46,163 bases of DNA from Acidobacteriota bacterium (GTDB lineage Bacteria > Acidobacteriota > Terriglobia > JAJPHL01 > JAPKYU01). The notes under the pieces were generated by a model. That model saw only the letters and a program-made list of their open reading frames with translations. It ran no database searches and was not told the origin of the DNA. Of the stretch, positions 3,714 through 46,163 are shown in pieces (positions within the stretch are counted from its first letter, which is position 1; each line of letters opens with the position of its first letter). Position numbers and translations under genes: made by a program. Location: the NCBI GenBank assembly GCA_026394175.1, contig JAPKYU010000013.1:1-46163 (forward strand), given 5' to 3'.

Positions 3714-5147
3714 CTATTTCCCGACACAGAACTGGCTGAAGATTCGATCCAACACATCGTCCACCGTGGTCTGGCCGGTAATCATATCCAGGGGGCGCAG
3801 GGCATTGTACAGATCCAGCAGAAGCATTTCATGGGGCACCGCGGCCTGGACCGCGCCGCGAGCCGTATCCAGCGCGGCCAGGGCCTCGCGCAACAGTTGC
3901 TCGTGCCGGATGTTGGTGAGGAAGGCGGTCTCGCGCGAGCCGTCTAGCCCGGGCAGCACGCTATCGAGAATCGCGCGGCGCAAGGCGGGTATGCCCTCGC
4001 CGGTCAGAGCGGAGACCCGCCAGGCCTCAGTGGCACAGCCTTCCAAGTTGTCCGGCACAGGCTTCCCTGGGAGCGCGGCCGTCCCGGCCGCATCCCCGGC
4101 GGGCGAGACGCCCGCGCTCCCAGGAAAGCCTGTGCCACTCAGATCCACCTTGTTCCAGACGAGGAGCGTCGGCCCTGCCTTGCGGCTCTGCTCGATCAGT
4201 TCCTGGTCGGCAGGAAGCAAACCGGCCGCGGCGTCCAGCACCACCAGCGTCAGGTCGGAATCGGCCAGGGCTTCGAACGACTTCTGAACGCCGAGCGACT
4301 CAGCTTCATCGCGCGCCTCGCGAATGCCGGCCGTATCCACCAGCCGCAGCGGAATGCCTTCCAGGTTGATGGTTTCGCTGACCAGGTCGCGGGTGGTGCC
4401 GGGCGCGGCGGTGACGATAGCGCGCTCGCGCTCCACCAGCCGGTTAAACAGGCTGGATTTTCCGACATTGGGGCGGCCGACAATCGCCAGGCTCAAGCCG
4501 GCCTGCACCACACGGCCGTAACGGAAGCTGGAGGCAAAGGCGGCCAGCGGCGCGCGCACGCCTTCGATGCTCTCGAGGATGCGCGCGTCGGGCAGGACCG
4601 AAACGTCGTCCTCGGCGAAATCGATACCCGCTTCCAGCAGCGCGATCAGGTCGACGAGTTGCTTCTTGATCGGCGCCAGCTTGCGGGCCACCGCGCCGGC
4701 CACCTGGCGGGCCGCCACCCGGGCCTGGTAGACGGTCTGCGCCTCGACCAGGTCGCGGACGGCTTCGGCCTGCGCCAGGTCCAGGCGGCCGTTCAGGAAG
4801 GCGCGCAGGGTGAATTCGCCGGGCTCGGCCAGCCGCGCGCCCAGCGCCAGGGCGCGCTCCACCACGAAGCGCAGAACCACCGGCGAGCCGTGGCAGCTCA
4901 CTTCAACTACGTCTTCAGCAGTGTAGGAGTGGGGCGCGCGGAACCAGGTGGCCACGACTTCATCGACCACCTCGCCGGCCTCATCCACCAGTTCGCCCAG
5001 GCGGGCGCGCCACGGCTCCGCATCTGCCGTGGTCCGCACCAGCGCGCCAGCGATGGCGACCGCCTGGCTCCCGGACAAGCGGACGACACCGATGCCGCCC
5101 CGCCCCGGCGGCGTGGAGATGGCCACAATGGTGTCGTCGGTGTGCAT
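3714..5147 (-). CDS. mnmE: tRNA uridine-5-carboxymethylaminomethyl modification GTPase MnmE
   Basis: N-terminal [23 protein letters not shown]-domain motifs [18 protein letters not shown] and NKVD. C-terminal CVGK. Confidence 0.95.
4054..4136. repeat. 83-bp near-perfect palindrome embedded in the mnmE coding sequence
   Basis: Arm GGCACAGGCTTCCCTGGGAGCGCGG (4054-4078) pairs with CCGCGCTCCCAGGAAAGCCTGTGCC (4112-4136). That is 25 nt with one mismatch and a 33-nt spacer. Confidence 0.85.
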
Positions 5148-5148
5148 C

Positions 5149-5215
5149 GGCTGTGGGCTGCAGACTGACAGCCGTGCGAGGCGCTCCTGCAGCCCACAGT
5201 CTACAGCCTACAGCC
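5149..5215. repeat. GCTGTRG-family heptamer hairpin between jag (stop) and mnmE (start)
   Basis: GGCTGTGGGCTGCAG ... CTGCAGCCCACAGTCTACAGCCTACAGCC. Confidence 0.8.
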
Positions 5216-5217
5216 TC

Positions 5218-7684: not shown

Positions 7685-7745
7685 AATTGCGGATTACGGA
7701 TTTCAACCGCTGGTGCTTGAAATCCGCAATCCGAGATCCGAAATT
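7685..7745. repeat. Heptamer hairpin (NCGGATT / AATCCGN units) between yidD (stop) and yidC (start)
   Basis: AATTGCGGATTACGGATTTCAA ... TTGAAATCCGCAATCCGAGATCCGAAATT. Arm 2 overlaps the yidD stop codon. Confidence 0.8.
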
Positions 7746-11668: not shown

Positions 11669-11714
11669 CCGTAGGCTGTGGGCTGTAGGAGGCATCGAGC
11701 CACAGCCTACAGCC
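11669..11714. repeat. GCTGTRG-family heptamer hairpin between convergent dnaN and a small ORF
   Basis: CCGTAGGCTGTGGGCTGTAGG ... GCCACAGCCTACAGCC. Confidence 0.8.
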
Positions 11715-12019
11715 TAATCCAGGTCGATATCCCGTGGCGGGGGTGGGCTGAGCGGCTCATCCTTGGCTTTCTGGAAGGCCTCCTCGAATTTCCGCTCCAG
11801 CAGTTTCACCCGCTTGCGCTCAGCCTGCACACTTTTCTGAAACTGTTCGTCGCGATGGCTTTCCTTGTCGCGCAAGGCCCGCGCGGCCTCGGCCAGGTCG
11901 GAGATTTTGGGGTGCTTGGGAGGGTTGTCATGTGAGATGACCGCGCGCAGGTCCGCGTCCACTCGAAGGCGGGCGTGGCAGCAAGGACATACGATGTCGA
12001 AGGTGCGTGGCCTGCCCAT
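11714..12019 (-). CDS. Small hypothetical protein (101 aa) with an N-terminal CPCC zinc-ribbon-like motif and a charged coiled-coil tail
   Basis: MGRPRTFDIVCPCCHARLRV... followed by a K/E/R-rich helix. The ATG at 12017-12019 lies 2 nt after the deacetylase stop, which suggests translational coupling. The 353-aa track ORF was rejected because it overlaps the deacetylase gene out of frame. Confidence 0.5.
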   Translation of the reverse strand: MGRPRTFDIVCPCCHARLRVDADLRAVISHDNPPKHPKISDLAEAARALRDKESHRDEQFQKSVQAERKRVKLLERKFEEAFQKAKDEPLSPPPPRDIDLD

Positions 12020-13127: not shown

Positions 13128-14084
13128 ATGCGTATCGTGGTGAGCGTGCTGGTGGCGCTGGCGGCCGTGTTTGTGATGAACTCGCCGGGGATCGTGCCCA
13201 GGCCGGAGGGCCGTTTCCAGCAGACCCTGTCCGTTTCCGGGCCCGTGGAACTCCGCGTGGCGACCGGCTCCGGCTCGGTCCGGGTGCGGAAAGGCGACTC
13301 CCACAGCGTCCGCATCCAGGCGCACATCCGTGCCGATTCGCGCGGCGACGCGGCGCTGGTGCACGACATCGAGCGGAATCCGCCCATCCGCCAGAGCGGC
13401 AATACCATCACCATTGGAACCGAGGTCCGGCGCTGGGAGCATGTCAGCATTTCCTACGAAGTGACGGTCCCGGAACAGACGCAGGTGGGGGCGCGAACCG
13501 GCGCGGGTTCGGTTGCCGTCTACGGCGTGGCGGGACCGGTTGATGCCGCCAGCGGCTCGGGCTCAGTCAATGCGGAAAACATTGGCGCCCGGGTGCTGGT
13601 CAAGAGCGGCGCCGGTTCCATTGCCGTCAGCCGGGCCGGGGGCGACGTGAACGCCATCACCGGCAGCGGCGGCCTGGAGTTGAACGATATTAAGGGTTCG
13701 GCCGAAGCTGAGACCGGCAGTGGAAGCATCAGCGTATCGGGTGCCACCGGCCGCGTCCGCGCCCACACCCGCTCCGGCCGCGTCCGCGTGGCCAAGGCCA
13801 ATGCCGACGTGGATGCCAAGACCGGCAGTGGCGGCATCGAGGTGGACGGCCGGCCCAAAGCGGCCCGCTGGGAATTGCGCACCGGTTCCGGGCCGGTCAC
13901 GGTCAGCCTTCCTTCCGGTACCGGTTTCGAGTTGGATGCGCACAGCGGTTCGGGCCGCATCAGCACCGCCCACCAACTCACCCGCACAGAGGCCTCGGGC
14001 AAGCACGAATTGCGGGGGCTGGTGGGCCGGCCCGACAACCGCGTCTTCATCCGCACGAGCAGCGGCAGCGTCCGCATCGATTAG
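13128..14084 (+). CDS. DUF4097-like beta-strand repeat protein with an N-terminal signal/anchor
   Basis: AGGAGG lies upstream. The N-terminus is hydrophobic. Units of the form (T/S)GSG(S/G)(I/V)xV recur about every 20 aa. Confidence 0.75.
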   Translation: MRIVVSVLVALAAVFVMNSPGIVPRPEGRFQQTLSVSGPVELRVATGSGSVRVRKGDSHSVRIQAHIRADSRGDAALVHDIERNPPIRQSGNTITIGTEVRRWEHVSISYEVTVPEQTQVGARTGAGSVAVYGVAGPVDAASGSGSVNAENIGARVLVKSGAGSIAVSRAGGDVNAITGSGGLELNDIKGSAEAETGSGSISVSGATGRVRAHTRSGRVRVAKANADVDAKTGSGGIEVDGRPKAARWELRTGSGPVTVSLPSGTGFELDAHSGSGRISTAHQLTRTEASGKHELRGLVGRPDNRVFIRTSSGSVRID

Positions 14085-14199
14085 GCCGTAGGCTGTGGGC
14101 CGTCGGCTGACTGGGTGCGGCCGCTTCCAGTGCTGGGGCCGCGCCTTCGCAGGCCCCCAAACCCGGAGCCCACAGCCCATAGCCCACAGCCCACAGGCC
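14085..14199. repeat. GCTGTRG-family heptamer hairpin with a long loop
   Basis: GCCGTAGGCTGTGGGCCGTCGGCTG ... GAGCCCACAGCCCATAGCCCACAGCCCACAGGCC. The loop carries an inner GCGGCC/GGCCGC stem. Confidence 0.8.
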
Positions 14200-14270
14200 A
14201 ACTAAGCTTTTGCGCTGGTTCGACTTTTGGGGTATTCTGCGATATCGAATTCCCCAGTGCGGGTGTGTCC

Positions 14271-17351: not shown

Positions 17352-17675
17352 ATGTGGAAGCGGATCCTGTATTTCGTCTTCGTCCTGTTCGCCATCGAGA
17401 TGGGACTGTTTCTCGCCGCCCTGCCCTGGACCTCGCTCTGGGAACGGAATATTCTCGGTTCGCTTTTTCCCGCGTTTCGGCCGGTGCTGTTGAGCAATTA
17501 TTTCCGCGGCGCGCTCACCGGGCTGGGCCTGATCGACATCTGGATTGGCGTTTCCAATCTGTGGAATTCCCGGGAGAACCTGGCGCGGATGGGGAAAGAG
17601 GAACAGGCGGCGCCCGCGGCGCGGCACGCCGGCGAGGGTGAGATGGCGTCCATGCCGCCGGGCCGCAAGCCGTAA
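17352..17675 (+). CDS. Small hypothetical membrane protein (107 aa)
   Basis: Two hydrophobic segments (ILYFVFVLFAIEMGLFLAALPW and ALTGLGLIDIWIGV). It starts 16 nt after the TPR gene. Confidence 0.5.
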   Translation: MWKRILYFVFVLFAIEMGLFLAALPWTSLWERNILGSLFPAFRPVLLSNYFRGALTGLGLIDIWIGVSNLWNSRENLARMGKEEQAAPAARHAGEGEMASMPPGRKP

Positions 17676-17678
17676 AAA

Positions 17679-17758
17679 AGTTTTCAGTTCTGAGTTGTCA
17701 GTTTTCAGTTGGCGGCAGGCTCAACAACTGAAAACTGAGAACTGAAAACTGACAACTG
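17679..17758. repeat. Heptamer hairpin (CAGTTTT / CAGTTCT / GAGTTGT units)
   Basis: AGTTTTCAGTTCTGAGTTGTCAGTTTTCAGTTG ... CAACTGAAAACTGAGAACTGAAAACTGACAACTG. Arms are about 33 nt with a few mismatches. Confidence 0.85.
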
Positions 17759-17762
17759 TCTT

Positions 17763-18386
17763 ATGGGCCGCCGCTCCTATCTGTACTACATCACCGACAG
17801 CTCGCAGCTTGAAACGCCGGAGCGCGTCGATGCCCTGCTGGAGCGCATAGGCGCGGCCTTCCGGGCCGGTGTCGATTGGGTGCAGGTGCGGGAGAAGCGC
17901 ATGCCGGTGCGCGCGCTGTGCGGGCTGGTGGAGCGCGCCGCGCGGCTCCCCGAGAAGGGCGCCGGAAAACTGCTGGTCAACGAGCGGCTGGATGTGGCGC
18001 TGGCCTGCGGCGCCGACGGCGTTCACCTGCCGGCCGACTCGCTGCCCGCCGGCGCCGTGCGCCGCGCGACGCCGCGTGACTTCCTGGTGGGTGTTTCCTG
18101 CCACACCGTGGAGGAGGTGGAAGGGGCCGCGCGAGAAGGCGCAAGCTTTGCCGTGCTCGGTCCCATCTTCGCTACGCCGGGCAAGAGACCGCCGCTGGGT
18201 GTGGACTTGTTGCGCCAGGCCTGCGGCCGCGTGGCGCCGTTGCGCTTTCCCGTGCTGGCGCTTGGCGGGGTCACGTTGGAGAACGCTTTTGCCTGTCTGG
18301 AGGCAGGCGCCGCCGGCCTCGCCGCCATCCGCCTGTTCCAGACCGCCGATGTAGCAAGGGTGGTGGCTCGATTGCGTTCGCTTTGA
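17763..18386 (+). CDS. thiE: Thiamine-phosphate synthase (ThiE family)
   Basis: LYYITD, VQVREK, ADGVHL, GVSCH, GPIFATPGK and LALGGV motifs appear in canonical order. Confidence 0.85.
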   Translation: MGRRSYLYYITDSSQLETPERVDALLERIGAAFRAGVDWVQVREKRMPVRALCGLVERAARLPEKGAGKLLVNERLDVALACGADGVHLPADSLPAGAVRRATPRDFLVGVSCHTVEEVEGAAREGASFAVLGPIFATPGKRPPLGVDLLRQACGRVAPLRFPVLALGGVTLENAFACLEAGAAGLAAIRLFQTADVARVVARLRSL

Positions 18387-18420
18387 GGCAGCCGCCTGGC
18401 ACCTGACACTTGACACCTGC

Positions 18421-20037: not shown

Positions 20038-21867
20038 ATGAAACGTTACTCGCTGCTGATTGGTGTTCTGGCGGCCGTCGGAGTGGCAGCCGCGGCCTAC
20101 GCCGTGCAAGCGCAGAAAGCACCAGCCGCCAAGGCCACGCCAGCCGAAGCGCGGGCCTTTCTCACCAGGGCCCAGGCGCGGTTGCTGGAGCTGTGGGCCA
20201 AGGCCGACCGCGCTTCCTGGGTGCAGAGCACCTACATCACCGACGACACCGAACAGATCGCGGCCGAGGCCCAGAAAGACGTGATCGCGGCGGCGACCGA
20301 TCTGGCGCTGGACGCCCGCCGCTTCGACGGCCTCAAGCTGCCTGCCGACACGGCGCGCAAGCTGGAATTGCTGAAGCTTGCCCTCACGCTGCCGGCGCCG
20401 GCGGACCCGCGGAAACAGGCCGAGCTGACGCGCATCGCCGCCTCGCTCGAAGGCGATTACGGCAAGGGCAAGTACTGCCCCGAGGGGCCGCAGGGCAAGT
20501 GTTATTCGCTGAACGACCTGGAGAACATCATGGCCCAAAGCCGCGACCCCGACCAGTTGCTGATGGCCTGGCGCGGCTGGCACAGCATCTCGCCGCCCAT
20601 GCGCCAGCGCTACCAGCGCTTCGTGGAGCTGGCCAACGAGGGTGCGCGCACCCTGGGCTTCGCCGACATGGGCGCGCTGTGGCGCTCGAAGTACGACATG
20701 CCGCCGGAGCAGTTCTCGGCCGAGGTGGAGCGGCTGTGGCAGCAGGTGCGGCCGCTGTACGAGGCGCTGCATACCTACGTGCGCGCCCGGCTCATCCGCA
20801 AGTACGGCAAGGCGGCGGAGCGGCCCGACGGCCTGATCCCCGCCCACCTGCTGGGCAACATGTGGGCCCAGCAGTGGGACAACATCTACCCGCTGGTGGA
20901 GCCGCCCGGCAGCGCCACCGGCTATGACCTGACCGAGCTGCTGAAAGCGAAGAACGTCACCCCGCTCGAGATGGTCCGCTACGGCGAGCGCTTCTTCACC
21001 TCGCTGGGCTTCGATCCCCTGCCGAAGGGCTTCTGGGAACGCTCGATGTTCACCAAGCCGCGCGACCGCGACGTGGTCTGCCACGCCAGCGCCTGGGACG
21101 TGGACCAAGTCGAGGACCTGCGGCTGAAGATGTGCATCGAGATCAAGGGCGAGGACCTGGTCACCATCCATCACGAACTGGGCCACAACTTTTACCAGCG
21201 CGCCTACAGCACGCTGCCCCCGCTGTATCGCGACAGCGCCAACGACGGCTTCCACGAGGCCATCGGCGACACCATCGCCCTGTCGGTGACGCCTGCCTAC
21301 CTCAACAAGATCGGGTTGCTGGCCCAGGCGCCGAAGGAGGGAAGCGAGCTGGGCGAGCTGATGATGCGGGCCTTGGACAAGGTCGCGTTCCTGCCCTTCG
21401 GCCTGCTGATCGACCAGTGGCGATGGAAAGTGTTCTCCGGCCAGATCAAGCCCGCCGACTACAACAAGACCTGGTGGGAACTGCGAAAGAAATACCAGGG
21501 AGTCGCCCCGCCGCTGGAGCGCAGTGAGGCGGATTTCGACCCCGGAGCGAAGTATCACGTTCCGGCCAACGTGCCCTACACCCGCTACTTCCTGGCCGAC
21601 ATTCTCCAGTTCCAGTTCCACCGCGGGCTGTGCCGCGCGGCCGGCCACCAGGGGCCGCTGCATCGCTGCTCGATTTACGCCAATGCGGCCGCCGGAGCTA
21701 AGCTCAGGCAGGTGCTGGAGATGGGCAAGAGCCAGCCGTGGCCCGAGGCGCTGAAGGCCCTCACCGGGGAAGACCGCATGGATGCTACCGCCATCCTGGA
21801 TTACTTCGCCCCGCTCAAGAAATGGCTGGACGAGCAGAACAGGAGACCAGTGACGAGTGACAAGTGA
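20038..21867 (+). CDS. M2-family (angiotensin-converting-enzyme-like) zinc metallopeptidase with a signal peptide
   Basis: [10 protein letters not shown] plus HEAIGD (HEXXH + E). Signal peptide is [23 protein letters not shown] chose the ATG at 20038. Confidence 0.9.
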
Positions 21868-21938
21868 CCAGTGACGAGCAAGCAGCAGCGTCCAACAGGC
21901 GCTTCCCTTGTTCACTCGTCACTTGTCACTCGTCACTG
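21845..21938. repeat. Heptamer hairpin (GACNAGT units) overlapping the 3' end of the M2 peptidase gene
   Basis: GACCAGTGACGAGTGACAAGTGACCAGTGACGAGCAAG ... CTTGTTCACTCGTCACTTGTCACTCGTCACTG. 21 consecutive bp pair perfectly. Confidence 0.85.
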
Positions 21939-26396: not shown

Positions 26397-26439
26397 GGCT
26401 GTAGGCTGTGGGCTGTGGGTCGGCCCACAGCCTACAGCC
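26397..26439. repeat. GCTGTRG-family heptamer hairpin (best-preserved copy)
   Basis: GGCTGTAGGCTGTGGGC (26397-26413) pairs perfectly over 17 bp with GCCCACAGCCTACAGCC (26423-26439). The loop is 9 nt. Confidence 0.9.
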
Positions 26440-26469
26440 CACAAGGGGGGGAAAGGGGGGAAACAAACC

Positions 26470-29761: not shown

Positions 29762-29814
29762 GTCCCAAATCCCAAGTCCCAAGGCGGAACGACCTTGGAC
29801 CTTGGACTTTGGAC
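29762..29814. repeat. Heptamer hairpin (CCCAART / TTGGAC units) between the VWA gene stop and the recA start
   Basis: GTCCCAAATCCCAAGTCCCAAGG-cggaacga-CCTTGGACCTTGGACTTTGGAC. Confidence 0.85.
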
Positions 29815-29822
29815 TGCTTCTG

Positions 29823-32739: not shown

Positions 32740-32820
32740 AATGGGACGCAGATGAACGCAGATAAACGCAGATCAGGTGCAATTCAATCCGCGTTCATCC
32801 GCGTTCATCAACGTCCCATC
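32740..32820. repeat. Tandem-unit hairpin (about 10-nt CGCAGATRAA units) in a divergent 5' region
   Basis: AATGGGACGCAGATGAACGCAGATAAACGCAGATCAGG ... AATCCGCGTTCATCCGCGTTCATCAACGTCCCATC. Confidence 0.8.
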
Positions 32821-36471: not shown

Positions 36472-36529
36472 GGCTGTAGGCCGTAGGCTGTGGGCCGCAG
36501 GCTCTTCCTGCAGCCCACAGCCTACAGCC
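36472..36529. repeat. GCTGTRG-family heptamer hairpin
   Basis: GGCTGTAGGCCGTAGGCTGTGGGCCGCAGG-ctctt-CCTGCAGCCCACAGCCTACAGCC. Confidence 0.85.
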
Positions 36530-37507: not shown

Positions 37508-37540
37508 TCCGCGAAGATTCCCGCGGCGTCCCGCCGCCAT

Positions 37541-37616
37541 GATGTAGCGCCGGCGTCCCGCCGGTAATCGTCCTCCGGTCGCCGATCGGTTACCGGCGAG
37601 ACGCCGGCGCTACATC
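37541..37616. repeat. Long palindrome (27-nt arms, not heptameric)
   Basis: GATGTAGCGCCGGCGTCCCGCCGGTAA pairs with TTACCGGCGAGACGCCGGCGCTACATC. There is one mismatch and a 22-nt spacer. Confidence 0.85.
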
Positions 37617-37658
37617 CGGGGCGCGAGACGCGCAGGGGCCTGTGCTAACCTTTCAACC

Positions 37659-38879
37659 ATGGGGGGTGCGGGAACCAGTGCCGAATTCGACCTGCCCGCC
37701 GCCCTTTCCTTGCTGCCGGCCGCGCTCGACTTCACTGCGGATTTCGATTTCACCAGCGTCCCGGAAGGCCCGGGCGTGTTTCTGCTGGAGACCGGGGGCG
37801 AGTCGTTCCTGGGCAAAAGCGCCTCGCTGCGGCGGCGGCTGGCGCGGCTGCTGGCGGAATGCGGAGTGCGGGACGCCGAGCGCGGAACACCACCATCCGT
37901 GTCGCCCACTCTGCATTCCGCACTACGCACTCCGCGCCCCCGGCTGAATCTGCGGGCTGCGACCCGCCGGATCCACTACCGCGCCACCGGCTCGGCGTTT
38001 GAGACCACACTGCTGCTGTACCAGGCCATGCGGGCGCTTTATCCGCAGCGTTACCGCGAGCTGCTTCGTTTGCGGCATCCGCCGCTGCTGAAATTAAATC
38101 TCGACAACCCCTGGCCGCGGAGCTATGTGACGCGGCGGCTGGGACGCAAGCGGGCGCTTTACTACGGCCCCTTCCCCTCCCGCGCGGCCGCCGAGAAATT
38201 CGCGCCCCAGATCCTCGACCTGTTCCTGGTGCGGCGCTGCCGCGAGGAGATTCGCCCCGATCCGGCGCACCCCGGCTGCATTTACGGGGAGATGAACATG
38301 TGCCTGCGGCCGTGCCAGAACGCAGCCACTTCCGAGCAGTACCAGGAGGAGGCCGGGCGGCTGGCATCTTTCCTCACCACGGCGGGAGCTTCGCTGCTGA
38401 AGGAGCTGGAGACCGAGCGCGACCGGGCCTCCGAGGCCCTCGATTTCGAGGAGGCGGCGCGGCTGCACAAGCGCATCGAAAAGGTGCGCGAGGCGCTCAA
38501 GCACCGGCCCGACCTGGCCGTGGACCTGGAGCGGTTGCACGGCCTGGTGGTCCAGCGCGCCGCCGCGGAGCAGAGCGCCGCGCCGGCTGCGCCCGCGGTC
38601 ATGCTGTTTCCCGTGTGGCGGGGCTACCTGCTGCCGGCCATCCGGCTGGCGCTGGAAGTGATCGACGGCAAGCCGGTCTCGCTCGACGCCCGGTTGCGGG
38701 AGGCCCTTTCGGGCCTTGGTTTCCGCGGCGGCACGTCGCGCGTCCGCGCCGAGCACATGGCCCTGCTGGCGCGCTGGTACTACCGCGGCGCCCGCCAGGG
38801 CGAGTTCGTTCCCTTCGAAAGCTATGAGCGCATTCCCTTCCGCAAGGTGGTGGGAGCCATCAGCCGTGTCTTGCGCTGA
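37659..38879 (+). CDS. UvrC N-terminal-half homolog (GIY-YIG-like + Cys-rich + UVR domain) lacking the UvrC C-terminal nuclease/HhH half
   Basis: PGVFLL...FLGKSASLRRRL (GIY-YIG-like). SAFETTLLLYQAMRALYPQRY. YYGPFPS. The Cys cluster C-x12-C-x7-C-x3-C (RRCREEIRPDPAHPGCIYGEMNMCLRPC). UVR helix DFEEAARLHKRIEKV. Confidence 0.7.
   Translation: MGGAGTSAEFDLPAALSLLPAALDFTADFDFTSVPEGPGVFLLETGGESFLGKSASLRRRLARLLAECGVRDAERGTPPSVSPTLHSALRTPRPRLNLRAATRRIHYRATGSAFETTLLLYQAMRALYPQRYRELLRLRHPPLLKLNLDNPWPRSYVTRRLGRKRALYYGPFPSRAAAEKFAPQILDLFLVRRCREEIRPDPAHPGCIYGEMNMCLRPCQNAATSEQYQEEAGRLASFLTTAGASLLKELETERDRASEALDFEEAARLHKRIEKVREALKHRPDLAVDLERLHGLVVQRAAAEQSAAPAAPAVMLFPVWRGYLLPAIRLALEVIDGKPVSLDARLREALSGLGFRGGTSRVRAEHMALLARWYYRGARQGEFVPFESYERIPFRKVVGAISRVLR
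37853..37939. repeat. GCGGAGT-family heptamer inverted repeat located inside the UvrC-like CDS
   Basis: GGCGGAATGCGGAGTGCGGG ... CTGCATTCCGCACTACGCACTCCGCGCCC. It is translated as ...AECGVRDAERGTPPSVSPTLHSALRTPR... Confidence 0.75.
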
Positions 38880-39948: not shown

Positions 39949-40605
39949 ATGACGGACCTGAAGGGACTCTATGATGCGATCCTGAACGGCGACGCGAAAG
40001 CCGCCGCCGCGTTGACCGCCCAGGCGCTGGCGGAGGAGCGCGACCCGCTGGAGATGGTCAACCAGTACATGTCGCCGGCCATGGACGAAGTGGGCCGGCG
40101 CTTCGAAGCGGAAGAATATTTCGTGCCCGAGTTGCTGTTGTCGGCGCGGGCCATGAAAGCCGCGCTGGCGCTGGTCCGGCCGCTGCTGGCCGCCCGCGGC
40201 GCGAAGCCCGCCGGGCGCGTGGCGATTGGCACAGTGAAAGGCGACCTGCACGACATCGGCAAGAACCTGGTAGCCTCGCTGCTGGAAGGCGGCGGGTTCC
40301 AGATCCAGGACCTGGGCGCCGATGTCAGTGCGGAGAAGTTTGTCCAGGCGGCTCGCGACGGCGATGCCCAGATCATTGCCCTCTCGGCGCTGTTGACGGT
40401 CACCATGCGCGGGATGAAAACCACCATCGACGCGCTGAAGGAAGCCGGCGTGCGCGACCGCGTCAAAGTGATCGTGGGTGGGGCTCCCATCACCCAGAGA
40501 TACGCCGACGAGATCGGCGCCGACGGATATGCGGAAAACGCCAGCGCGGCGGTGGCCCTGACCCGCAGGCTGGTTGGCGCCGGCCCGCAGGCCGTCCTGC
40601 AGTAA
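39949..40605 (+). CDS. Cobalamin (B12)-binding corrinoid protein (B12-binding_2 cap + Rossmann domain)
   Basis: The DxHxxG motif (GDLHDIGKN), SALLT and VIVGGAP blocks. AGGAGG RBS at 39938-39943. Confidence 0.85.
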
Positions 40606-40632
40606 GTGCGGAGTGCGGAGTGTGGGGTGGGG
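40606..40632. repeat. Single arm of the GCGGAGT heptamer family immediately after the corrinoid protein stop codon
   Basis: GTGCGGAGTGCGGAGTGTGGGGTGGGG. I see no convincing local partner arm. Confidence 0.7.
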
Positions 40633-40665
40633 AATAAACGCTTTCTCAGCACTCAGCTCTTTCGA

Positions 40666-41202: not shown

Positions 41203-41239
41203 ACGCAGAGTTTAAAGTTTCAAGTTCAAAGTTCCGGAT

Positions 41240-42396: not shown

Positions 42397-42409
42397 ACGC
42401 ACCTCCGAA

Positions 42410-42506
42410 AAGTTAAGAGTTATGAGTTAAGAGTTAAGAGTTGGCCAACCCGCCCGGGATGACTGCAGTTCCCAATCCATAACTCTTAACTCTTAACTCT
42501 TAATTC
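42410..42506. repeat. Heptamer hairpin (GAGTTAA units) between the NfeD and SPFH genes, overlapping the NfeD 3' end
   Basis: AAGTTAAGAGTTATGAGTTAAGAGTTAAGAGTTGG ... CCATAACTCTTAACTCTTAACTCTTAATTC. Confidence 0.85.
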
Positions 42507-43874
42507 TTCGCCCTCGGGCTCGACCTTCAGAAGCAGGCCCTCGACGGCCCGCACGCGCACCCGGGCGCCGCGCAGCACCGGGGTGCTGCTGACGGCATTC
42601 CAGATTTCGCCGTGGACAAAGATCTTGCCTTCCGGCGCCAGGTCGGTCTGCGCCGTCCCGATTTGGTCCACCAGGCCCGCTTCGCCCGTGGTGACCTTGC
42701 TCTTCCAGGCCTGAATGGCCAGGCGCAGCAGTAACGTGGTGATCACGCCGAGCGGAATGGCTACCGAGAGTGCGGTCGTCAGTTTCACCTTCATCTCCGG
42801 AACGGGCGCGTTGATAAGGATCAGAGCGCCGATCACCATGGCCGCGATGCCGCCGGCGGCCAGCACGCCATGGGTCATGAATTTGGCCTCCAGAACGAAG
42901 AAAACGAACGCCAGGACGATCAGCAGCGCACCCGTCCAGTTGATGGGCAACAGGGACAGGGCGAACATGCCGAGCACCAGCATGATGGCCCCGGCCACCC
43001 CGGGCACGATCAGACCCGGATGCGTGAATTCAATATACAGGCCCAGCGCGCCCAGCGCCAGCAGGATGAAGGCGATGTTGGGATCGATGATGTGGCGCAG
43101 GAACTCGTACCGGGCACTGCCGGTGTAATCGTCCAACCGCGCGTTGGCCAGGCGCAGGGTCACCTGGCGGCCGTCGAAGCGCCGGATGGTCTTGCCGTCC
43201 ATCTTGGCCAGCAGGTCGTGCGGCGAATCGGCGACTACATCGATCAGGCGCTCCTTGAGGGCCTCGGTTTCGGTGAAGGACTTGCTTTCCAGGATGCCCT
43301 TCTGGGCCAGGTCGGGGTTGCGGCCGCGCTTGCCGGCGATAGAGCGGACGTAGGCGGCGGCATCCTGCTCGACCTTCTGCTTCATCACCTCGTCCATCTT
43401 CTCGCCCAGCAACACCGGGTGCGCGGCGCCGGTGTTGGTTCCGGGGGCCATGGAGGCCACGTCGCAGGAGAGCAGGATCACGAAGCCGGCGGAGGCCGCG
43501 CGGCTGCCGCTGGGCCCCACCCAGGCCATCACCGGCACCGGGGAGGCCAGGATCTTCTCCACGATGGCGCGCATGGAGGAGTCCAGCCCGCCCGGCGTGC
43601 TCAGCCGCAGCAGCACCGCTTCGGCATGCTGGGCCGCCGCTTTGTTCAACCCCTGCTCGACGTATTCGGCGGTCAGCGGGTGGACCATGCCGTCCAGGTC
43701 GATTTCCAGCACCAGCGGCTGCCGGGCAGCCTCGGCGGCCGGGGAGACAGCGCCGCGGTTGACGCCCGGGGCCAGCAAGACCAGCAGCGCCAGGGCGGCC
43801 ACCGCCGCCGGGAGTCCGCCACTCCGCACTCCGCACTCCGCACTCCGCATTTTGTTCATCCGAAATCTATTCAT
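42486..43874 (-). CDS. NfeD-family membrane-bound ClpP-class serine protease
   Basis: ClpP-like N-terminal domain (LSTPGGLDSSMRAI, GSRAASAGFVIL). Multi-TM middle region. C-terminal NfeD OB-fold (GKIFVHGEIWNAVS). It is paired with the SPFH gene downstream. Confidence 0.85.
   Translation of the reverse strand: MNRFRMNKMRSAECGVRSGGLPAAVAALALLVLLAPGVNRGAVSPAAEAARQPLVLEIDLDGMVHPLTAEYVEQGLNKAAAQHAEAVLLRLSTPGGLDSSMRAIVEKILASPVPVMAWVGPSGSRAASAGFVILLSCDVASMAPGTNTGAAHPVLLGEKMDEVMKQKVEQDAAAYVRSIAGKRGRNPDLAQKGILESKSFTETEALKERLIDVVADSPHDLLAKMDGKTIRRFDGRQVTLRLANARLDDYTGSARYEFLRHIIDPNIAFILLALGALGLYIEFTHPGLIVPGVAGAIMLVLGMFALSLLPINWTGALLIVLAFVFFVLEAKFMTHGVLAAGGIAAMVIGALILINAPVPEMKVKLTTALSVAIPLGVITTLLLRLAIQAWKSKVTTGEAGLVDQIGTAQTDLAPEGKIFVHGEIWNAVSSTPVLRGARVRVRAVEGLLLKVEPEGEELRVKS
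43814..43850. repeat. (ACTCCGC)x4 tandem heptamer array, a single arm of the GCGGAGT family, inside the 5' end of the NfeD ORF
   Basis: Four exact ACTCCGC units at 43821-43848, preceded by one degenerate unit. On the minus strand it encodes MRSAECGVRSGG. Confidence 0.85.
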
Positions 43875-45475
43875 GGCGAACGCATCTGAATGGTCTGCAG
43901 GACCGAGCGGGCGGCCACGTTGCCCGGCTCCATCGACAGCACCTGCTGCGCGTGTCGCTGCGCCTCCTGCAGCTTATTCTGCTCCAGATAGACCTTGGCG
44001 AGCAACAGGTGGGCGTCCACGGGCTTGGGGGCGGCCAGCGCCAGCTCCGCCTCGCGGATGGCCTCCTCTTTCTGCCCGCCGCGCTCGTAGAGCCGGGCCA
44101 GCAGCAGGTGGGTGTCGGAGGCCTGGGGATCCAGCGTCGCAGCCTCTTTCAATTCGTTGAGGGCTTCGGCGTCGTTCTGCTCGCGGAACAGGTCGCGGCC
44201 GCGCTCCAGGTGCACCTGCGCATGCTGGGTCCTGGGCAGGCGCGAAAGCTTCTCCTCGTCCAGGGTCTGCAGCGTCAGTTGCAACTGGCGGAAACTGGGC
44301 TCGTCGTAATTGCGCTTGATGCGCTCCAGGCCCTCCAGGGCGCGGTCATCCAGGTTGGTGAAGCGGAGGCCGGCAGGATTGCGGCTGAGCAGCTCGCGCT
44401 CGCGCGCCGCGTCGGCCGTGTTGCCGGCGCGCTCCAGCGACTTCAGCAGCACGGCCCGCGCTTCGGCGTCGTTGGGGCGGCCGGCCAGCACCAGCCGCAG
44501 GCGCCGCGCGGCCGACGCGTATTGGCCGTTCCGGTAATACCAGTAGCCGACGTTGAACTGGTAATCGGCGTCGGCCGGATCGGCGTCCGCCGCCTTGCGG
44601 AAGTTGTCCAGCGCCGCCCGGCGGTTCAGCCGCGACTGCGCGGCCCCCAGGTTGTTGTACACCTCGTTCAGCGGCAGCCGCGCGGCCACCGCCTGCAACG
44701 CGGTCTCCGCCTTGTCGTAGTCTTCCCGCCGGAAATAGCAGATGCCCAGCAGGAAGTTGGCCTCCAGGTAGTTGCTCTCGTCGTGCTTCAGCTTCGAGAG
44801 CCAGAGAATGGCCGTGGCATAGTCGCGGCTCTGAAAATAGATTTTGCCAAGCTGCAGGGCGGCCCGGCTGAGGCCCGGCTCAAGCCGCACGGCCTCGCGG
44901 AAATACTTGATCTGCTGGGGGCGCGAAGAGGCCGAGAGGCCGCGGATGTAATTCTCCCAGGCGTCGAGGCGGAGGCGCGGCGGCGCGGGCGACAGGGTGA
45001 TGCCCGGCAACTGTCCGGCCAGCGCCTCGGCCACCCGGTCCTGGATGTTCAGCAACTCCGGCAGCGGGGCCGCTGCCTCGGCCCTGCCGGCCAGCTTGGG
45101 CGGGTGCATTTCCAGAACGTCGGCGCTGGCGCGGAGCTGGTTGGTGGCGGGCTCCAGCGTGAACTGGCCGATGATCACGCAATCGGCGTCGGTGGTTTCG
45201 GCCAGCTTCAGAATGGTGGCGCGGCTCAGGATGCCGGCCGGGGGAATGCCCAGCGCGTCGAAGGCCGCCGCGCGCTCCTCCCGGGTGACCACGTAGGTCT
45301 GCGGCCCGGTGAAGCGGTCCGACAGCGCTTCCACCAAGCTCTCGCCGATCCATTCCAGGCTGGCATTGCGCGTCTGGTTTTCGAACGGGAGAATCAGCAC
45401 GGTGCCGCCGGCCGCCGCTGCCGCAAGCAGGAGGGGCAACACCCCCGCCAGGCAGAGCCTCCGCACAAGTCTCAT
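43871..45475 (-). CDS. Tetratricopeptide-repeat protein with a signal peptide
   Basis: Signal peptide plus LILPFEN...EWIGESL N-domain, then multiple TPR units. The stop overlaps the NfeD start (ATGA). I chose the ATG at 45473-45475. Confidence 0.8.
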   Translation of the reverse strand: MRLVRRLCLAGVLPLLLAAAAAGGTVLILPFENQTRNASLEWIGESLVEALSDRFTGPQTYVVTREERAAAFDALGIPPAGILSRATILKLAETTDADCVIIGQFTLEPATNQLRASADVLEMHPPKLAGRAEAAAPLPELLNIQDRVAEALAGQLPGITLSPAPPRLRLDAWENYIRGLSASSRPQQIKYFREAVRLEPGLSRAALQLGKIYFQSRDYATAILWLSKLKHDESNYLEANFLLGICYFRREDYDKAETALQAVAARLPLNEVYNNLGAAQSRLNRRAALDNFRKAADADPADADYQFNVGYWYYRNGQYASAARRLRLVLAGRPNDAEARAVLLKSLERAGNTADAARERELLSRNPAGLRFTNLDDRALEGLERIKRNYDEPSFRQLQLTLQTLDEEKLSRLPRTQHAQVHLERGRDLFREQNDAEALNELKEAATLDPQASDTHLLLARLYERGGQKEEAIREAELALAAPKPVDAHLLLAKVYLEQNKLQEAQRHAQQVLSMEPGNVAARSVLQTIQMRSP

Positions 45476-45514
45476 CAAAGGCTGTCTCCCCCGTTATTAT
45501 AGCCCCATCGCCAG

Positions 45515-45574
45515 CCGGAAGGCGGAAGGCAGTAGGCAGAAAGCAGAAGGCGGAAGGCGGAAAGCCGAAAGCGG
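45515..45574. repeat. Left arm of the GGCRGAA-family heptamer inverted repeat flanking the four-helix-bundle gene
   Basis: CCGGAAGGCGGAAGGCAGTAGGCAGAAAGCAGAAGGCGGAAGGCGGAAAGCCGAAAGCGG. It ends 1 nt before the stop codon of the enclosed gene. Confidence 0.85.
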
Positions 45575-45970
45575 CTATGCGGGCGTGAACTTCTTGGCCT
45601 CCATCATCATCTTACCGAGCATCCTGCCCAACTGTTCATAATCCGTCGTCAATTGCGCGTGAGCGCCCTCCGATAAATACGCGCAGTCAAAGGCGAAGTC
45701 CAGCCACACCTTTGTTTCAGTTGCCTCGGCGTCGGCATCCGCCATCTTCGAAGAAAACATACTCGGATATTGGCGTTTCCGAAAACCCTCCGCGATGTTG
45801 GCCGCAACACTGCGCGATGAGCGGCGAACCTGGTCGGTCAGGGAGAAGCGCTCATCCTTCGGGAACTTCTTTGAGGCATCGAATATCTGCATGGCCAGCT
45901 TGTAAGCCAACTGATAAGCCCACAGATCGCGATGCCCCCTCAGCGCTGCAGGTTGGTCCGTGTTTTCCAC
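45575..45970 (-). CDS. Four-helix-bundle protein (23S rRNA intervening-sequence protein / Avd-like family)
   Basis: HRDLWAYQLAYKLAMQIF, FSLTDQVRRSSRSVAANIAEG and a C-terminal helix pattern typical of the family. GC is lower than in the flanks. The start is GTG. Confidence 0.8.
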   Translation of the reverse strand: MENTDQPAALRGHRDLWAYQLAYKLAMQIFDASKKFPKDERFSLTDQVRRSSRSVAANIAEGFRKRQYPSMFSSKMADADAEATETKVWLDFAFDCAYLSEGAHAQLTTDYEQLGRMLGKMMMEAKKFTPA

Positions 45971-46010
45971 TTTCTGCCTTCTGCTTTCTGCTTTCCGCCT
46001 TCTGCCTACC
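45967..46010. repeat. Right arm of the GGCRGAA-family inverted repeat
   Basis: CCACTTTCTGCCTTCTGCTTTCTGCTTTCCGCCTTCTGCCTACC, the reverse complement of the left-arm units. It overlaps the enclosed gene's start and the neighbouring gene's stop. Confidence 0.85.
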
Positions 46011-46163
46011 GGACCCAGTCGGCGATGAACACGTTGAACTCGTAGCGCTGCTTGGCGTTGCGGTCGGAAATGAAGACCAGCTTCTTGCCGTCGCGCGAAA
46101 ACATGGGGAAGGAATTGAACCCGCCGGAGCTGGTCACCTGCTCCAGCCCCGTGCCATCGATGT
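46006..46163 (-). CDS. C-terminal fragment of a PD40/TolB-like beta-propeller repeat protein (5' end outside the window)
   Basis: The reverse frame reads ...DGTGLEQVTSSGGFNSFPMFSRDGKKLVFISDRNAKQRYEFNVFIADWVR, then stop (TAG at 46006-46008). Confidence 0.6.
   Translation of the reverse strand, partial: IDGTGLEQVTSSGGFNSFPMFSRDGKKLVFISDRNAKQRYEFNVFIADWVR

Follow-up and report, generated by a model that had tools for sequence, protein, structure and literature searches.

Which role does a small gene of the 23S rRNA intervening sequence (IVS) protein family play when it is found outside rRNA, enclosed between two inverted arrays of 7-base repeats, and do gene and repeats belong together? This question is raised by a locus at the end of a 46,163-nt stretch of acidobacterial DNA (assembly GCA_026394175.1, contig JAPKYU010000013.1, positions 1 to 46,163; in the following, the window). 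A first-pass annotation, based on the sequence alone, had described a complete four-helix-bundle gene of lower GC content than its flanks, bracketed by arms of GGCRGAA-type heptamers, the right one of which overlaps its start codon and the stop codon of the neighboring PD40 gene. This observation is correct in each of its elements apart from minor details of arm length. The annotation had further suggested that the locus reproduces the IVS design outside rRNA and is related to the ORF-less heptamer hairpins of the window, and this interpretation is supported only in part.

Anatomy of the locus

The gene (45575-45970, minus strand) has a GTG start codon (45968-45970) and encodes a protein of 131 amino acids. 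The protein matches the profiles PF05635 (E 1.2e-30; 106.3 bits against a cut-off of 33.8) and TIGR02436 (E 4e-28; 97.8 bits against 24), and it is 67-97% identical to 27 homologs over 92-100% of its length. Its size lies within the about 110-135 amino acids typical of the family. An exact-sequence look-up found no identical protein on record. Sequence matches to the structures 2GSC (E 3e-8) and 2RLD (E 3e-6), each deposited with five chains, are in line with the superfamily assignment, while fold and pentameric assembly of this protein are inferred from sequence only.

In gene orientation, the 5' arm (45964-46012, minus strand) consists of about six tandem heptamers with the unit RGCRGAA on the gene strand. 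Tandem Repeats Finder reports it at 45972-46007 with period 7 and 5.1 copies, or at 45965-46011 with period 14. This arm is a few bases longer than the 44 nt first annotated and contains the TAG stop codon of the upstream gene (46006-46008), an SD-like GAAGG (45977-45981), and the GTG start codon. The 3' arm (45515-45574, minus strand; YYCYGCY on the gene strand) starts at the base after the TAG stop codon of the ORF (CTA on the plus strand, 45575-45577) and was called at 45516-45574 with period 7, 8.4 copies, and 82% matches. The best ungapped complementarity is found between 45515-45563 and 45964-46012, with 84% over 49 nt, and is the longest inverted repeat in the window.

Both strands of 45495-46030 are predicted to fold into this stem, with -230.5 kcal/mol for the sense RNA (z -4.6) and -220.3 kcal/mol for the antisense RNA (z -6.3), and none of 100 shuffled sequences folded as well. 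The predicted stem continues for about 10 bp beyond the heptamers, with 45506-45514 (CATCGCCAG) pairing with 46013-46029 inside the PD40 coding end, but this extension is not conserved in a 97%-identical copy of the gene at another locus (L085).

The GC content of the ORF is 55.6% (GC3 0.70), in contrast to 68.8% for the adjacent TPR gene, 65.5% for the window, and GC3 values of 0.74-0.90 for host genes. The window holds 12 period-7 arrays scoring at least 11, compared to none in 30 dinucleotide shuffles, and other periods give 0-2 arrays. Within the window, GGCRGAA-type arrays occur only at this gene.

The upstream neighbor (46006-46163, minus strand) is the 3' end of a PD40-repeat gene that runs off the window, and its visible 51 amino acids match PF07676 (E 2e-8). 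The same junction is seen in L085 and in a further locus, L086. The downstream neighbor (43871-45478, minus strand) is a TPR gene, the first of a conserved TPR-NfeD-Band7 string. Directly after the 3' arm lies a TATAAT (-10-like) box of this gene (45496-45501, minus strand), and the motif GGCTATAATAAC is conserved in relatives with and without the gene in the hairpin. A promoter and terminator consensus scan of 45300-46163, with a two-hexamer promoter consensus, found nothing; it called neither this box nor any promoter for the four-helix-bundle gene itself. No Rfam family, rRNA included, was found in the window, and the neighbors are PD40 and TPR genes; the stem-plus-ORF-in-loop design does occur here outside rRNA, as the first-pass annotation had inferred. 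The protein matches no PADLOC defense-system family at E up to 0.01.

Conservation of the gene-in-hairpin design

To determine whether the arrangement is a local accident, 80 loci from other genomes of Acidobacteriota, Chloroflexota, Bacteroidota, Planctomycetota, Calditrichota, Cloacimonadota, Verrucomicrobiota, and Desulfobacterota were examined. A flank-to-flank inverted repeat score of at least 12 was found at 49% of the family genes but at 2.7% of 186 other genes in the same loci, an 18-fold difference, and a score of at least 16 at 33% and 0%, respectively. A 6-8-mer array on at least one side was found at 55% compared to 9.7%. Depending on the criterion, 49-64% of 75 family genes are flanked by inverted repeat arrays, against 2.7-6.5% of the 186 others, and about a third to a half of family members show no clear arms at these thresholds. 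A lack of such arms at other family members had been named beforehand as a finding that would refute the proposed link, and this test did not refute it. A control with random intervals overstated the enrichment, because arrays are intergenic, and was replaced by the gene-flank control given here. Cyanobacterial plasmid copies of the gene have GCAGGGR/YCCCTGC arms, which brings the design to at least nine phyla, although one cyanobacterial copy (L210) has its arrays in direct rather than inverted orientation.

The arms belong to the gene. In the loci examined, GGCRGAA arrays occur only next to the gene. An 80%-identical gene in the loci L088 and L089 has the same arm type but lies between galK and an MR_MLE gene, whereas a relative with a 92%-identical galK has neither arms nor ORF after galK. 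The downstream neighbor of this relative also differs. The TPR-NfeD-Band7 synteny was likewise used to search for an empty site, but the upstream neighbor differs in every relative (L081-L084, L087), and a locus with a 100%-identical TPR gene (L216) also carries the gene with its arms. As no clean empty site with both flanks conserved was obtained, mobility rests on the occurrence of the same arms and ORF at different sites.

The repeat unit tracks the protein clade. For cross-phylum pairs, the Spearman correlation is 0.32, which was reached in 0 of 1000 permutations. Divergent paralogs on one contig have different arms (L004, L055, L065, L077, L079), while similar paralogs share them (L034). 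The ORF is under strong purifying selection (pN 0.12 and pS 0.82 against L088), whereas the arms turn over about eight times faster: against L085, the ORF differs at 1.8% of bases and the 5' arm at 5 of 35. A reading of compensatory changes between the arms of the window and L085, by inspection, was uninformative due to the register ambiguity of tandem repeats.

The gene is in sense orientation with its upstream neighbor in 63 of 72 loci and with its downstream neighbor in 56 of 75. The order of GGCAG upstream and CTGCC downstream was initially regarded as a polarity relative to the gene. However, an inverted repeat reads the same on both strands, and this order is thus a handedness of the hairpin and not evidence about gene orientation. 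A stem acting at the RNA level should favor G:U over A:C mismatches on the sense strand; this test was only weakly positive over 43 loci (90 against 59, p 0.014), was negative in the window itself (2 against 4), and is not decisive.

Relation to ORF-less heptamer hairpins

The first-pass annotation had proposed that the ORF-less hairpins of the window may be decayed or non-autonomous versions of an IVS-like element or, alternatively, that the protein may act on such stems. Neither is shown, and the evidence is divided. ORF-less and ORF-bearing hairpins share period 7 and the same handedness, with the G/purine-rich arm on the 5' side. A relative whose TPR gene is 85% identical (L087) has an ORF-less GGCAG-type hairpin at the same spot before the TPR promoter. 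As a hairpin is thus present in a relative that lacks the ORF, this partly meets the second condition named beforehand as refuting the proposed link, that the arms turn out to belong to neighboring terminators present in relatives lacking the ORF. The co-variation of arm unit and protein clade would fit a protein that acts on its own arms. In contrast, the other hairpins of the window use other units, and only 5 of about 105 GGCRGAA arrays sampled from metagenomes lie next to such a gene, so that about 95% lack it. A translated search for decayed ORFs in long ORF-less loops found nothing in the 290-nt loop of a heptamer stem in L081 and a weak hit (E 6e-4) in the 520-nt loop of L139.

A proposed IVS-type cassette outside rRNA

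The locus is best explained, with a probability of roughly 0.55, as a copy of an IVS-type cassette outside rRNA, in which a four-helix-bundle (S23p/TIGR02436) gene travels together with two inverted arrays of a cognate heptamer and which is lodged in the spacer between a PD40 and a TPR gene. In this view, the cassette has no promoter of its own and would be transcribed by read-through from the upstream host gene, as suggested by its orientation and by the arm starting at the host stop codon. In the transcript, the arms would pair into an imperfect duplex of about 45-50 bp enclosing the ORF. As the arms are tandem repeats, they can pair in many registers, so that the stem would survive slippage. 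The duplex would be a substrate for RNase III, and cleavage would cut the ORF-bearing loop out of the host transcript, as in the IVSs of Coxiella, Leptospira, and Salmonella. The TPR gene would keep its own -10 box just after the arm, so that the insertion would do little harm. As the SD-like motif and the start codon lie inside the 5' arm, translation would probably depend on stem opening or processing. The protein probably recognizes or needs its own arms. The cassette, arms included, would relocate within and between genomes, for which recombination into pre-existing heptamer hairpins of the same unit is the most economical guess.

Of these steps, the analysis shows the maintenance of the protein by selection, the co-variation of arms and clade, and the occurrence of the same arms and ORF at different sites, and it shows the pairing by folding only; co-transcription, stem formation and RNase III processing in vivo, the dependence of translation on the stem, recognition of the arms by the protein, and the means of relocation are inferred from sequence, orientation, and homology. 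Both strands fold equally well, so that a role at the DNA level, as a cruciform or protein-binding array, is not excluded. Heptamer arrays, including GGCRGAA, are also common without this gene, and for Coxiella it is argued that the protein is not even made (PMC4990558).

The S23p/TIGR02436 family is very large, with 3,412 cluster hits for this one query and 70-75% identity across phyla, but has remained without a known function since it was noticed in rRNA IVSs in the early 1990s, and bacterial heptamer tandem repeats have been unexplained for as long. Literature searches on the family, on heptamer repeats, and on IVSs found no paper describing repeats that flank family members outside rRNA, the only relevant one being the Coxiella IVS study (PMC4990558). 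The analysis shows a family-wide association of the gene with a hairpin of cognate heptamers, which travel and co-vary with it, and its sense orientation with host genes. With the rRNA IVS read as one special case of this design, two vague puzzles become one testable model. In addition, such cassettes split operons and may create processing sites, and their arrays can mislead repeat or CRISPR finders and break assemblies.

Alternative explanations

The alternative that survives best, although it is regarded as unlikely, is a relationship similar to that of RAYTs and REPINs, in which the four-helix-bundle pentamer would be a trans-acting factor that recognizes, propagates, or generates its cognate arrays. 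The ORF-less arrays and hairpins would then be non-autonomous products, and the gene flanked by its own repeats the master copy. Besides the co-variation of unit and clade, also within one genome, the shared period and handedness, and the hairpin of L087, this is supported by the enrichment of ORF-less arrays with the unit of the local gene nearby (40% against 6.7% for random pairing). Unit types of the window's ORF-less hairpins (GCGGART, GGCTGTR) flank other paralogs elsewhere (the second copy in L004, and L074), and the family is concentrated in cyanobacteria, a taxon known for heptamer repeats. However, the protein has no recognizable nuclease, recombinase, or polymerase motif, and most ORF-less arrays are single or composite rather than hairpins. 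The low proportion of GGCRGAA arrays next to such a gene, with only five such genes in 646 kb of array-selected DNA, also speaks against it, but is what a high ratio of non-autonomous to master copies would give as well.

An extension of this alternative, which is less likely still but not excluded, is that four-helix-bundle proteins are the missing partner of the heptamer arrays and hairpins in the intergenic DNA of cyanobacteria, Acidobacteriota, Bacteroidota, and other phyla. Each protein clade would recognize its own heptamer, the gene-in-hairpin would be the autonomous form, and the ORF-less arrays and hairpins, including about 17 in this window, as well as the rRNA IVSs would be non-autonomous or inserted derivatives. 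If true, this would be a new class of mobile element with no recognizable transposase.

It is improbable that the arms are operator arrays through which the protein controls its own expression, with the hairpin as a by-product of sites on both sides. The co-variation, the location of the SD-like motif and start codon inside the 5' arm, and the binding of nucleic acid by the related Avd would fit, but this does not explain the consistent inverted arrangement and handedness, the same design in an rRNA helix whose stem is cut by RNase III, or the sense co-orientation with host genes. Equally improbable is a passive insertion of the gene into the loop of an ordinary host terminator or spacer hairpin. 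The many ORF-less heptamer hairpins at gene ends in the window and its relatives and the ORF-less stems of L087 and L081 would agree with it, but it is disfavored because GGCRGAA arms accompany the gene at different sites and in different phyla, are otherwise absent from those loci, and follow the protein clade and not the host, and because of the strength of the association relative to other genes. A remnant or accessory (Avd) gene of a diversity-generating retroelement (DGR) is rejected. Weak hits to bAvd (PF22296, 38.9 bits against a cut-off of 40), NF033474 (40.2 against 80), and the PHROG family "Avd protein of DGR" would agree with it, but both curated cut-offs are missed, no viral relatives of this clade were found among viral contigs, the neighbors are PD40, TPR, NfeD, and Band7 genes, and neither a reverse transcriptase nor a template/variable repeat pair or long direct repeat lies near the gene in the sequence seen, which ends 329 nt upstream. 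Just beyond the window end, L085 shows only the PD40 gene.

Comparison with known systems

The Avd proteins of DGRs belong to the same four-helix-bundle superfamily, but Avd genes are not known to lie inside heptamer hairpins. MITEs and other non-autonomous IS derivatives share terminal inverted repeats, small size, and ORF-less relatives with the locus, but here no transposase partner is known, no target-site duplication was seen, and the arms are tandem arrays of variable length.

In REP elements/REPINs with RAYT transposases, a single gene is also flanked by inverted copies of a short repeat that is dispersed without the gene, the repeat type co-varies with the protein clade, and copies are intergenic and form hairpins. 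ORF-less GGCAG-type hairpins are seen in L087 and in the loci L104, L112, L145, L162, L165, and L186. However, the protein is not a Y1 (IS200/IS605-like) transposase, its only Pfam hits being PF05635 and PF22296, the repeats are tandem heptamer arrays rather than single palindromes, and there is no evidence yet that the protein moves them. Cyanobacterial STRR (short tandemly repeated repetitive) sequences are intergenic tandem heptamers of unknown origin, often able to form hairpins, and cyanobacterial four-helix-bundle genes are themselves flanked by GCAGGGR heptamers. However, STRRs are not known to have been described with an associated gene, the window comes from a 65% GC, apparently acidobacterial genome, and the units differ.

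The closest system is the 23S rRNA IVS with an S23p ORF, as in Coxiella burnetii helix 45 and also in Leptospira and others, and the tie is stronger than the first-pass annotation had assumed. The Coxiella IVS has a 28-bp terminal stem, is excised by RNase III, and carries 2-3 GACAGAT heptamers plus GACAGAA, with a copy number that varies between strains, directly upstream of its S23p ORF (PMC4990558). Thus, a homologous ORF in the loop of a long stem of terminal inverted repeats, its sense orientation in the host transcript (at the present locus inferred from its strand, which is that of both neighbors), tandem heptamers with a CAGA core and varying copy number directly upstream (GACAGAT in Coxiella, RGCRGAA here), and a distribution that suggests horizontal spread (PMC4990558) are in common. 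In contrast to IVSs, which are inserted in helices 25, 45, or 9 of the 23S rRNA, the present element lies between two protein-coding genes, its arms are longer arrays of about 6 and 8.4 units on both sides, and its excision by RNase III is inferred by homology. Its ORF is under strong purifying selection, whereas the Coxiella ORF is reported to be decaying and probably untranslated.

Gene order and anatomy of the cassette

All genes of the region are read from the minus strand. A PD40-repeat gene (PF07676, E 2e-8) runs in from beyond the window end and stops at the TAG at 46008-46006. It is followed by a 131-aa ORF extending from the GTG at 45970 to the TAG at 45577-45575, by a TPR gene (45478-43871), and by NfeD and Band7 genes. 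In profile searches, the ORF is a clear member of PF05635 (106 bits against a cut-off of 33.8) and TIGR02436 (98 bits against 24), while it misses the cut-offs of the Avd models. Its relatives by sequence in the PDB are 2GSC and 2RLD, each deposited with five chains.

About six tandem heptamers of the type RGCRGAA lie directly upstream of the ORF, starting at the PD40 stop codon and running through the GTG start, and 8.4 heptamers of the complementary type lie directly after the stop codon of the ORF. The two arms pair over 49 nt at 84%, which is the longest inverted repeat in the window. Both strands are predicted to fold into this stem, and none of 100 shuffled sequences folds as well. The ORF has a GC content of 55.6% and a GC3 of 0.70, in a window with 65.5% GC whose genes have GC3 values of 0.74-0.90. 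An SD-like GAAGG is located 6 nt before the GTG, inside the arm, and a conserved GGCTATAATAAC (-10-like) motif for the TPR gene follows the 3' arm. The first-pass annotation, which had described a four-helix-bundle gene of lower GC bracketed by two inverted heptamer arms, is therefore correct in all essentials.

Inverted heptamer arrays as a property of the gene family

To determine whether this arrangement is restricted to one locus, 28 close homologues were aligned and 80 loci were retrieved from species-representative genomes. Most of the genes are flanked by short tandem arrays of period 7, less often 6 or 8, and the array on one side is the reverse complement of the array on the other. 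As arrays are intergenic, random intervals are too lenient a control, and the flanks of 186 other called genes in the same loci were used instead. A flank-to-flank inverted repeat score of at least 12 was found at 49% of the four-helix-bundle genes against 2.7% of the other genes, a score of at least 16 at 33% against 0%, and an array on at least one side at 55% against 9.7%. The loci cover Acidobacteriota, Chloroflexota, Bacteroidota, Planctomycetota, Calditrichota, Cloacimonadota, Verrucomicrobiota and Desulfobacterota. In addition, cyanobacterial plasmid copies (Nostoc, Leptolyngbya) show GCAGGGR / YCCCTGC arms. An exception is found on an Oscillatoria plasmid (locus L210, 1336-2066), in which the GGGAGAGT-type arrays on the two sides of the four-helix-bundle gene are in direct, not inverted, orientation.

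A large CRISPR-association screen lists "23S rRNA IVP" among the proteins linked to CRISPR arrays (PMC10910872, figure legend). Because these genes are flanked by short tandem arrays, part of that link could be a repeat-finder artefact.

Association of the arms with the gene

GGCRGAA arrays occur in the window only at this gene, and in the 80 loci only next to the gene. A gene whose protein is 80% identical, with synonymous sites saturated (pS 0.82, pN 0.12), has the same arm type, but lies between galK and an MR_MLE gene rather than between PD40 and TPR (loci L088/L089). A relative with a 92%-identical galK has neither arms nor ORF after galK, although its downstream neighbour also differs.

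When the genes are clustered by protein sequence, the arm unit follows the cluster rather than the host. AGAGATS arms occur in a Kiritimatiellales and a Bacteroidales genome, GGYGGTT-type arms in a Calditrichota and a Chryseobacterium genome, and GGCAGAA and GGCAGTA arms in Acidobacteriota, Anaerolineae and a Scalindua genome, while octamers occur in another clade. The 5-mer similarity of the arms correlates with protein identity even for pairs from different phyla, with a Spearman coefficient of 0.32 that was reached in 0 of 1000 permutations. On single contigs, divergent paralogues have different arms. In locus L004, two divergent paralogues (1860-2345 and 2950-3420) lie 1 kb apart, one before and one after the same host gene, each in its own heptamer hairpin (GCGGAAY and GGCAGAA), and the stop codons of the host genes abut the arms. 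Contigs L055, L065, L077 and L079 show the same pattern of different arms, whereas two similar paralogues in L034 share GGCAGGA arms.

The arms change fast. Between the window and a 97%-identical copy at the same site (L085), the ORF differs at 1.8% of bases and the TPR gene at 2.5%, while the 5' arm differs at 5 of 35 bases and the 3' arm has 7 units instead of 8. Even so, the arms stay within the same unit type over long divergence.

Orientation relative to host genes

As an inverted repeat reads the same on both strands, the arms give no information about the direction of the gene, and the position of GGCAG upstream cannot be read as a polarity relative to it. When orientation was tested separately, the gene was found on the same strand as its upstream neighbour in 63 of 72 loci and as its downstream neighbour in 56 of 75. 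The gaps are small, with medians of 110 and 84 nt including the arms. A consensus scan found no promoter in front of the ORF in the window, which points to expression by read-through from host genes. At the upstream junctions, the stop codon of the host gene is very often the TAG that begins or lies within the first heptamer (TAGGCAG...), as in L003, L009, L012, L013, L016, L017 and L024 and at 46006-46008 in the window. GGCAGTA arrays carry TAG in all three frames, so that such an arm would end any reading frame it enters.

Heptamer arrays and hairpins without the ORF

The window contains 12 strong period-7 arrays against 0 in shuffled sequences, while other periods give 0-2. In all, there are about 17 ORF-less tandem-heptamer arrays, most of them hairpins, located at or over the stop codons of genes and each with its own unit, for example AGTTTTC (or CAGTTTT), CAGTGAC, GGCYGTR, GTCCCAA, GAGTTAA and GCGGAGT. 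They are found at 820-891, 5186-5216, 7719-7744, 11672-11716, 14081-14201, 17670-17766, 18395-18419, 21848-21938, 26397-26443, 29762-29815, 36479-36529, 37854-37921, 40605-40633, 41209-41233, 42406-42510 and 43815-43849. The array at 43815-43849 (GCGGAGT x5) lies inside the annotated 5' end of the NfeD ORF, right after the overlapping TPR stop and NfeD start, and the same unit recurs at 37854-37921 (a hairpin) and at 40605-40633. The corresponding spot in relatives (L082 about 5150-5210, L083 about 5125-5180, L085 about 2470-2510) holds other heptamers (GCSGATT in L082) or none, and orthologous spacers in relatives likewise carry different heptamers or none. A further hairpin at 32741-32819 is built from a 10-base unit (ACGCAGATRA x3, and its complement), whose GCAGAT core is similar to the heptamer units. 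Two long G+C-rich palindromes at 4054-4136 and 37526-37631 (38 nt at 89% and 45 nt at 84%) are not tandem repeats and resemble REP-like elements.

The ORF-less hairpins share with the cassette both the period and a handedness. In hairpins made of tandem 6-8-mers, in the window and in loci such as L023, L083, L093, L126, L157 and L161, the G/purine-rich array is the 5' arm in 30 of 34 ORF-less and in 15 of 15 ORF-bearing cases. Since an inverted repeat reads the same on both strands, this asymmetry cannot come from the direction of transcription or replication.

At the very site of the cassette, a relative with an 85%-identical TPR gene (L087, 28-107) has an ORF-less GGCAGG / CCTGCC heptamer hairpin just upstream of the conserved TPR promoter, with a short 5' arm of about 21 nt and a 3' array of about 50 nt. 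A 74% relative (L081) has a GCGGCTT-type heptamer stem around a 290-nt loop without the ORF, which is filled with nested palindromes similar to the two palindromes in the window. Unit types of the ORF-less hairpins of the window do flank other paralogues elsewhere, as GCGGAAY flanks the second gene copy of L004 and GGCTGTA lies upstream of the gene in locus L074. ORF-less arrays with the unit of the local gene are enriched near the genes, at 40% against 6.7%.

The reverse test is sobering, however. Of 120 metagenome stretches chosen only for three RGCRGAA units, about 105 arrays were evaluable, and only 5 of these lie next to such a gene. Nine arrays are arms of ORF-less hairpins, and most are single or composite arrays abutting other heptamer arrays. 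The intergenic composite arrays (metagenome contigs L091, L099, L101, L114, L155, L166 and L171) consist of several different heptamer arrays lying back to back, for example (CAGTAGT)5 (CAGAAGG)8 (CAGAGGG)5 in L099 or (GGCAGAA)15 followed by CCCCACTT and AATTCAT arrays in L155, and have no four-helix-bundle gene and no inverted partner. In L139 (2748-3374), GGCAGAA / TTCTGCC arms enclose a loop of about 520 nt that gives only a weak four-helix-bundle HMM hit (E 6e-4), so it may be a decaying copy of the gene.

Heptamer arrays are therefore a much wider phenomenon than the gene. The suggestion of the first-pass annotation that the ORF-less hairpins are related to the cassette, or that the protein acts on such stems, is only partly supported. 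Two readings remain possible: the ORF-less structures could be derivatives of the cassettes, in a RAYT/REPIN-like relationship, or the cassettes could simply use and home to a pre-existing class of host repeats.

Proposed mechanism

The present analysis establishes the anatomy, the predicted stem, the family-wide association, the co-inheritance and co-variation of arms and ORF, purifying selection on the ORF, the fast turnover of the arms, the sense orientation in host gene strings, and the occurrence of the same cassette at different sites. The G:U-versus-A:C test for selection on the sense-strand RNA stem is only marginal (90 against 59, p 0.014; 2 against 4 in the window), and a DNA-level role is therefore not excluded. 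RNase III excision is known for the homologous IVS from the literature, whereas co-transcription with the PD40 gene, RNA-level stem formation and RNase III processing at this locus, control of translation by the stem, recognition of the arms by the protein, and the way in which the cassette moves are inferred.

Relationship to 23S rRNA intervening sequences

IVS elements with this ORF and with inverted termini are known, and the heptamers in the Coxiella IVS were noted in passing. In the literature searched, which lacks most subscription journals so that a prior description cannot be excluded, no description was found that non-rRNA members of this very large family are typically nested in inverted tandem-heptamer arrays, that this holds across at least nine phyla, that the unit co-varies with the protein clade, or that the genes ride in sense orientation in host transcription units. 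The finding gives an orphan protein family and the unexplained bacterial heptamer repeats a common and testable frame.

The 428-nt helix-45 IVS of Coxiella burnetii has been shown to have a 28-bp terminal stem and to be cut by RNase III in the stem (Warrier et al. 2016, PMC4990558). It carries two or three tandem GACAGAT heptamers, plus a GACAGAA, directly upstream of the S23p start. The copy number of these heptamers varies between strains, and the ORF lies in sense orientation in the rRNA precursor. The element in the window is not a 23S rRNA IVS in the strict sense, because it is not located in rRNA, and that it works like an IVS is an inference. Its anatomy nevertheless matches that of the Coxiella element, and only the host transcript differs. 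The element is therefore regarded as an IVS-type cassette outside rRNA, and the rRNA IVS as one insertion context of a broader element family.
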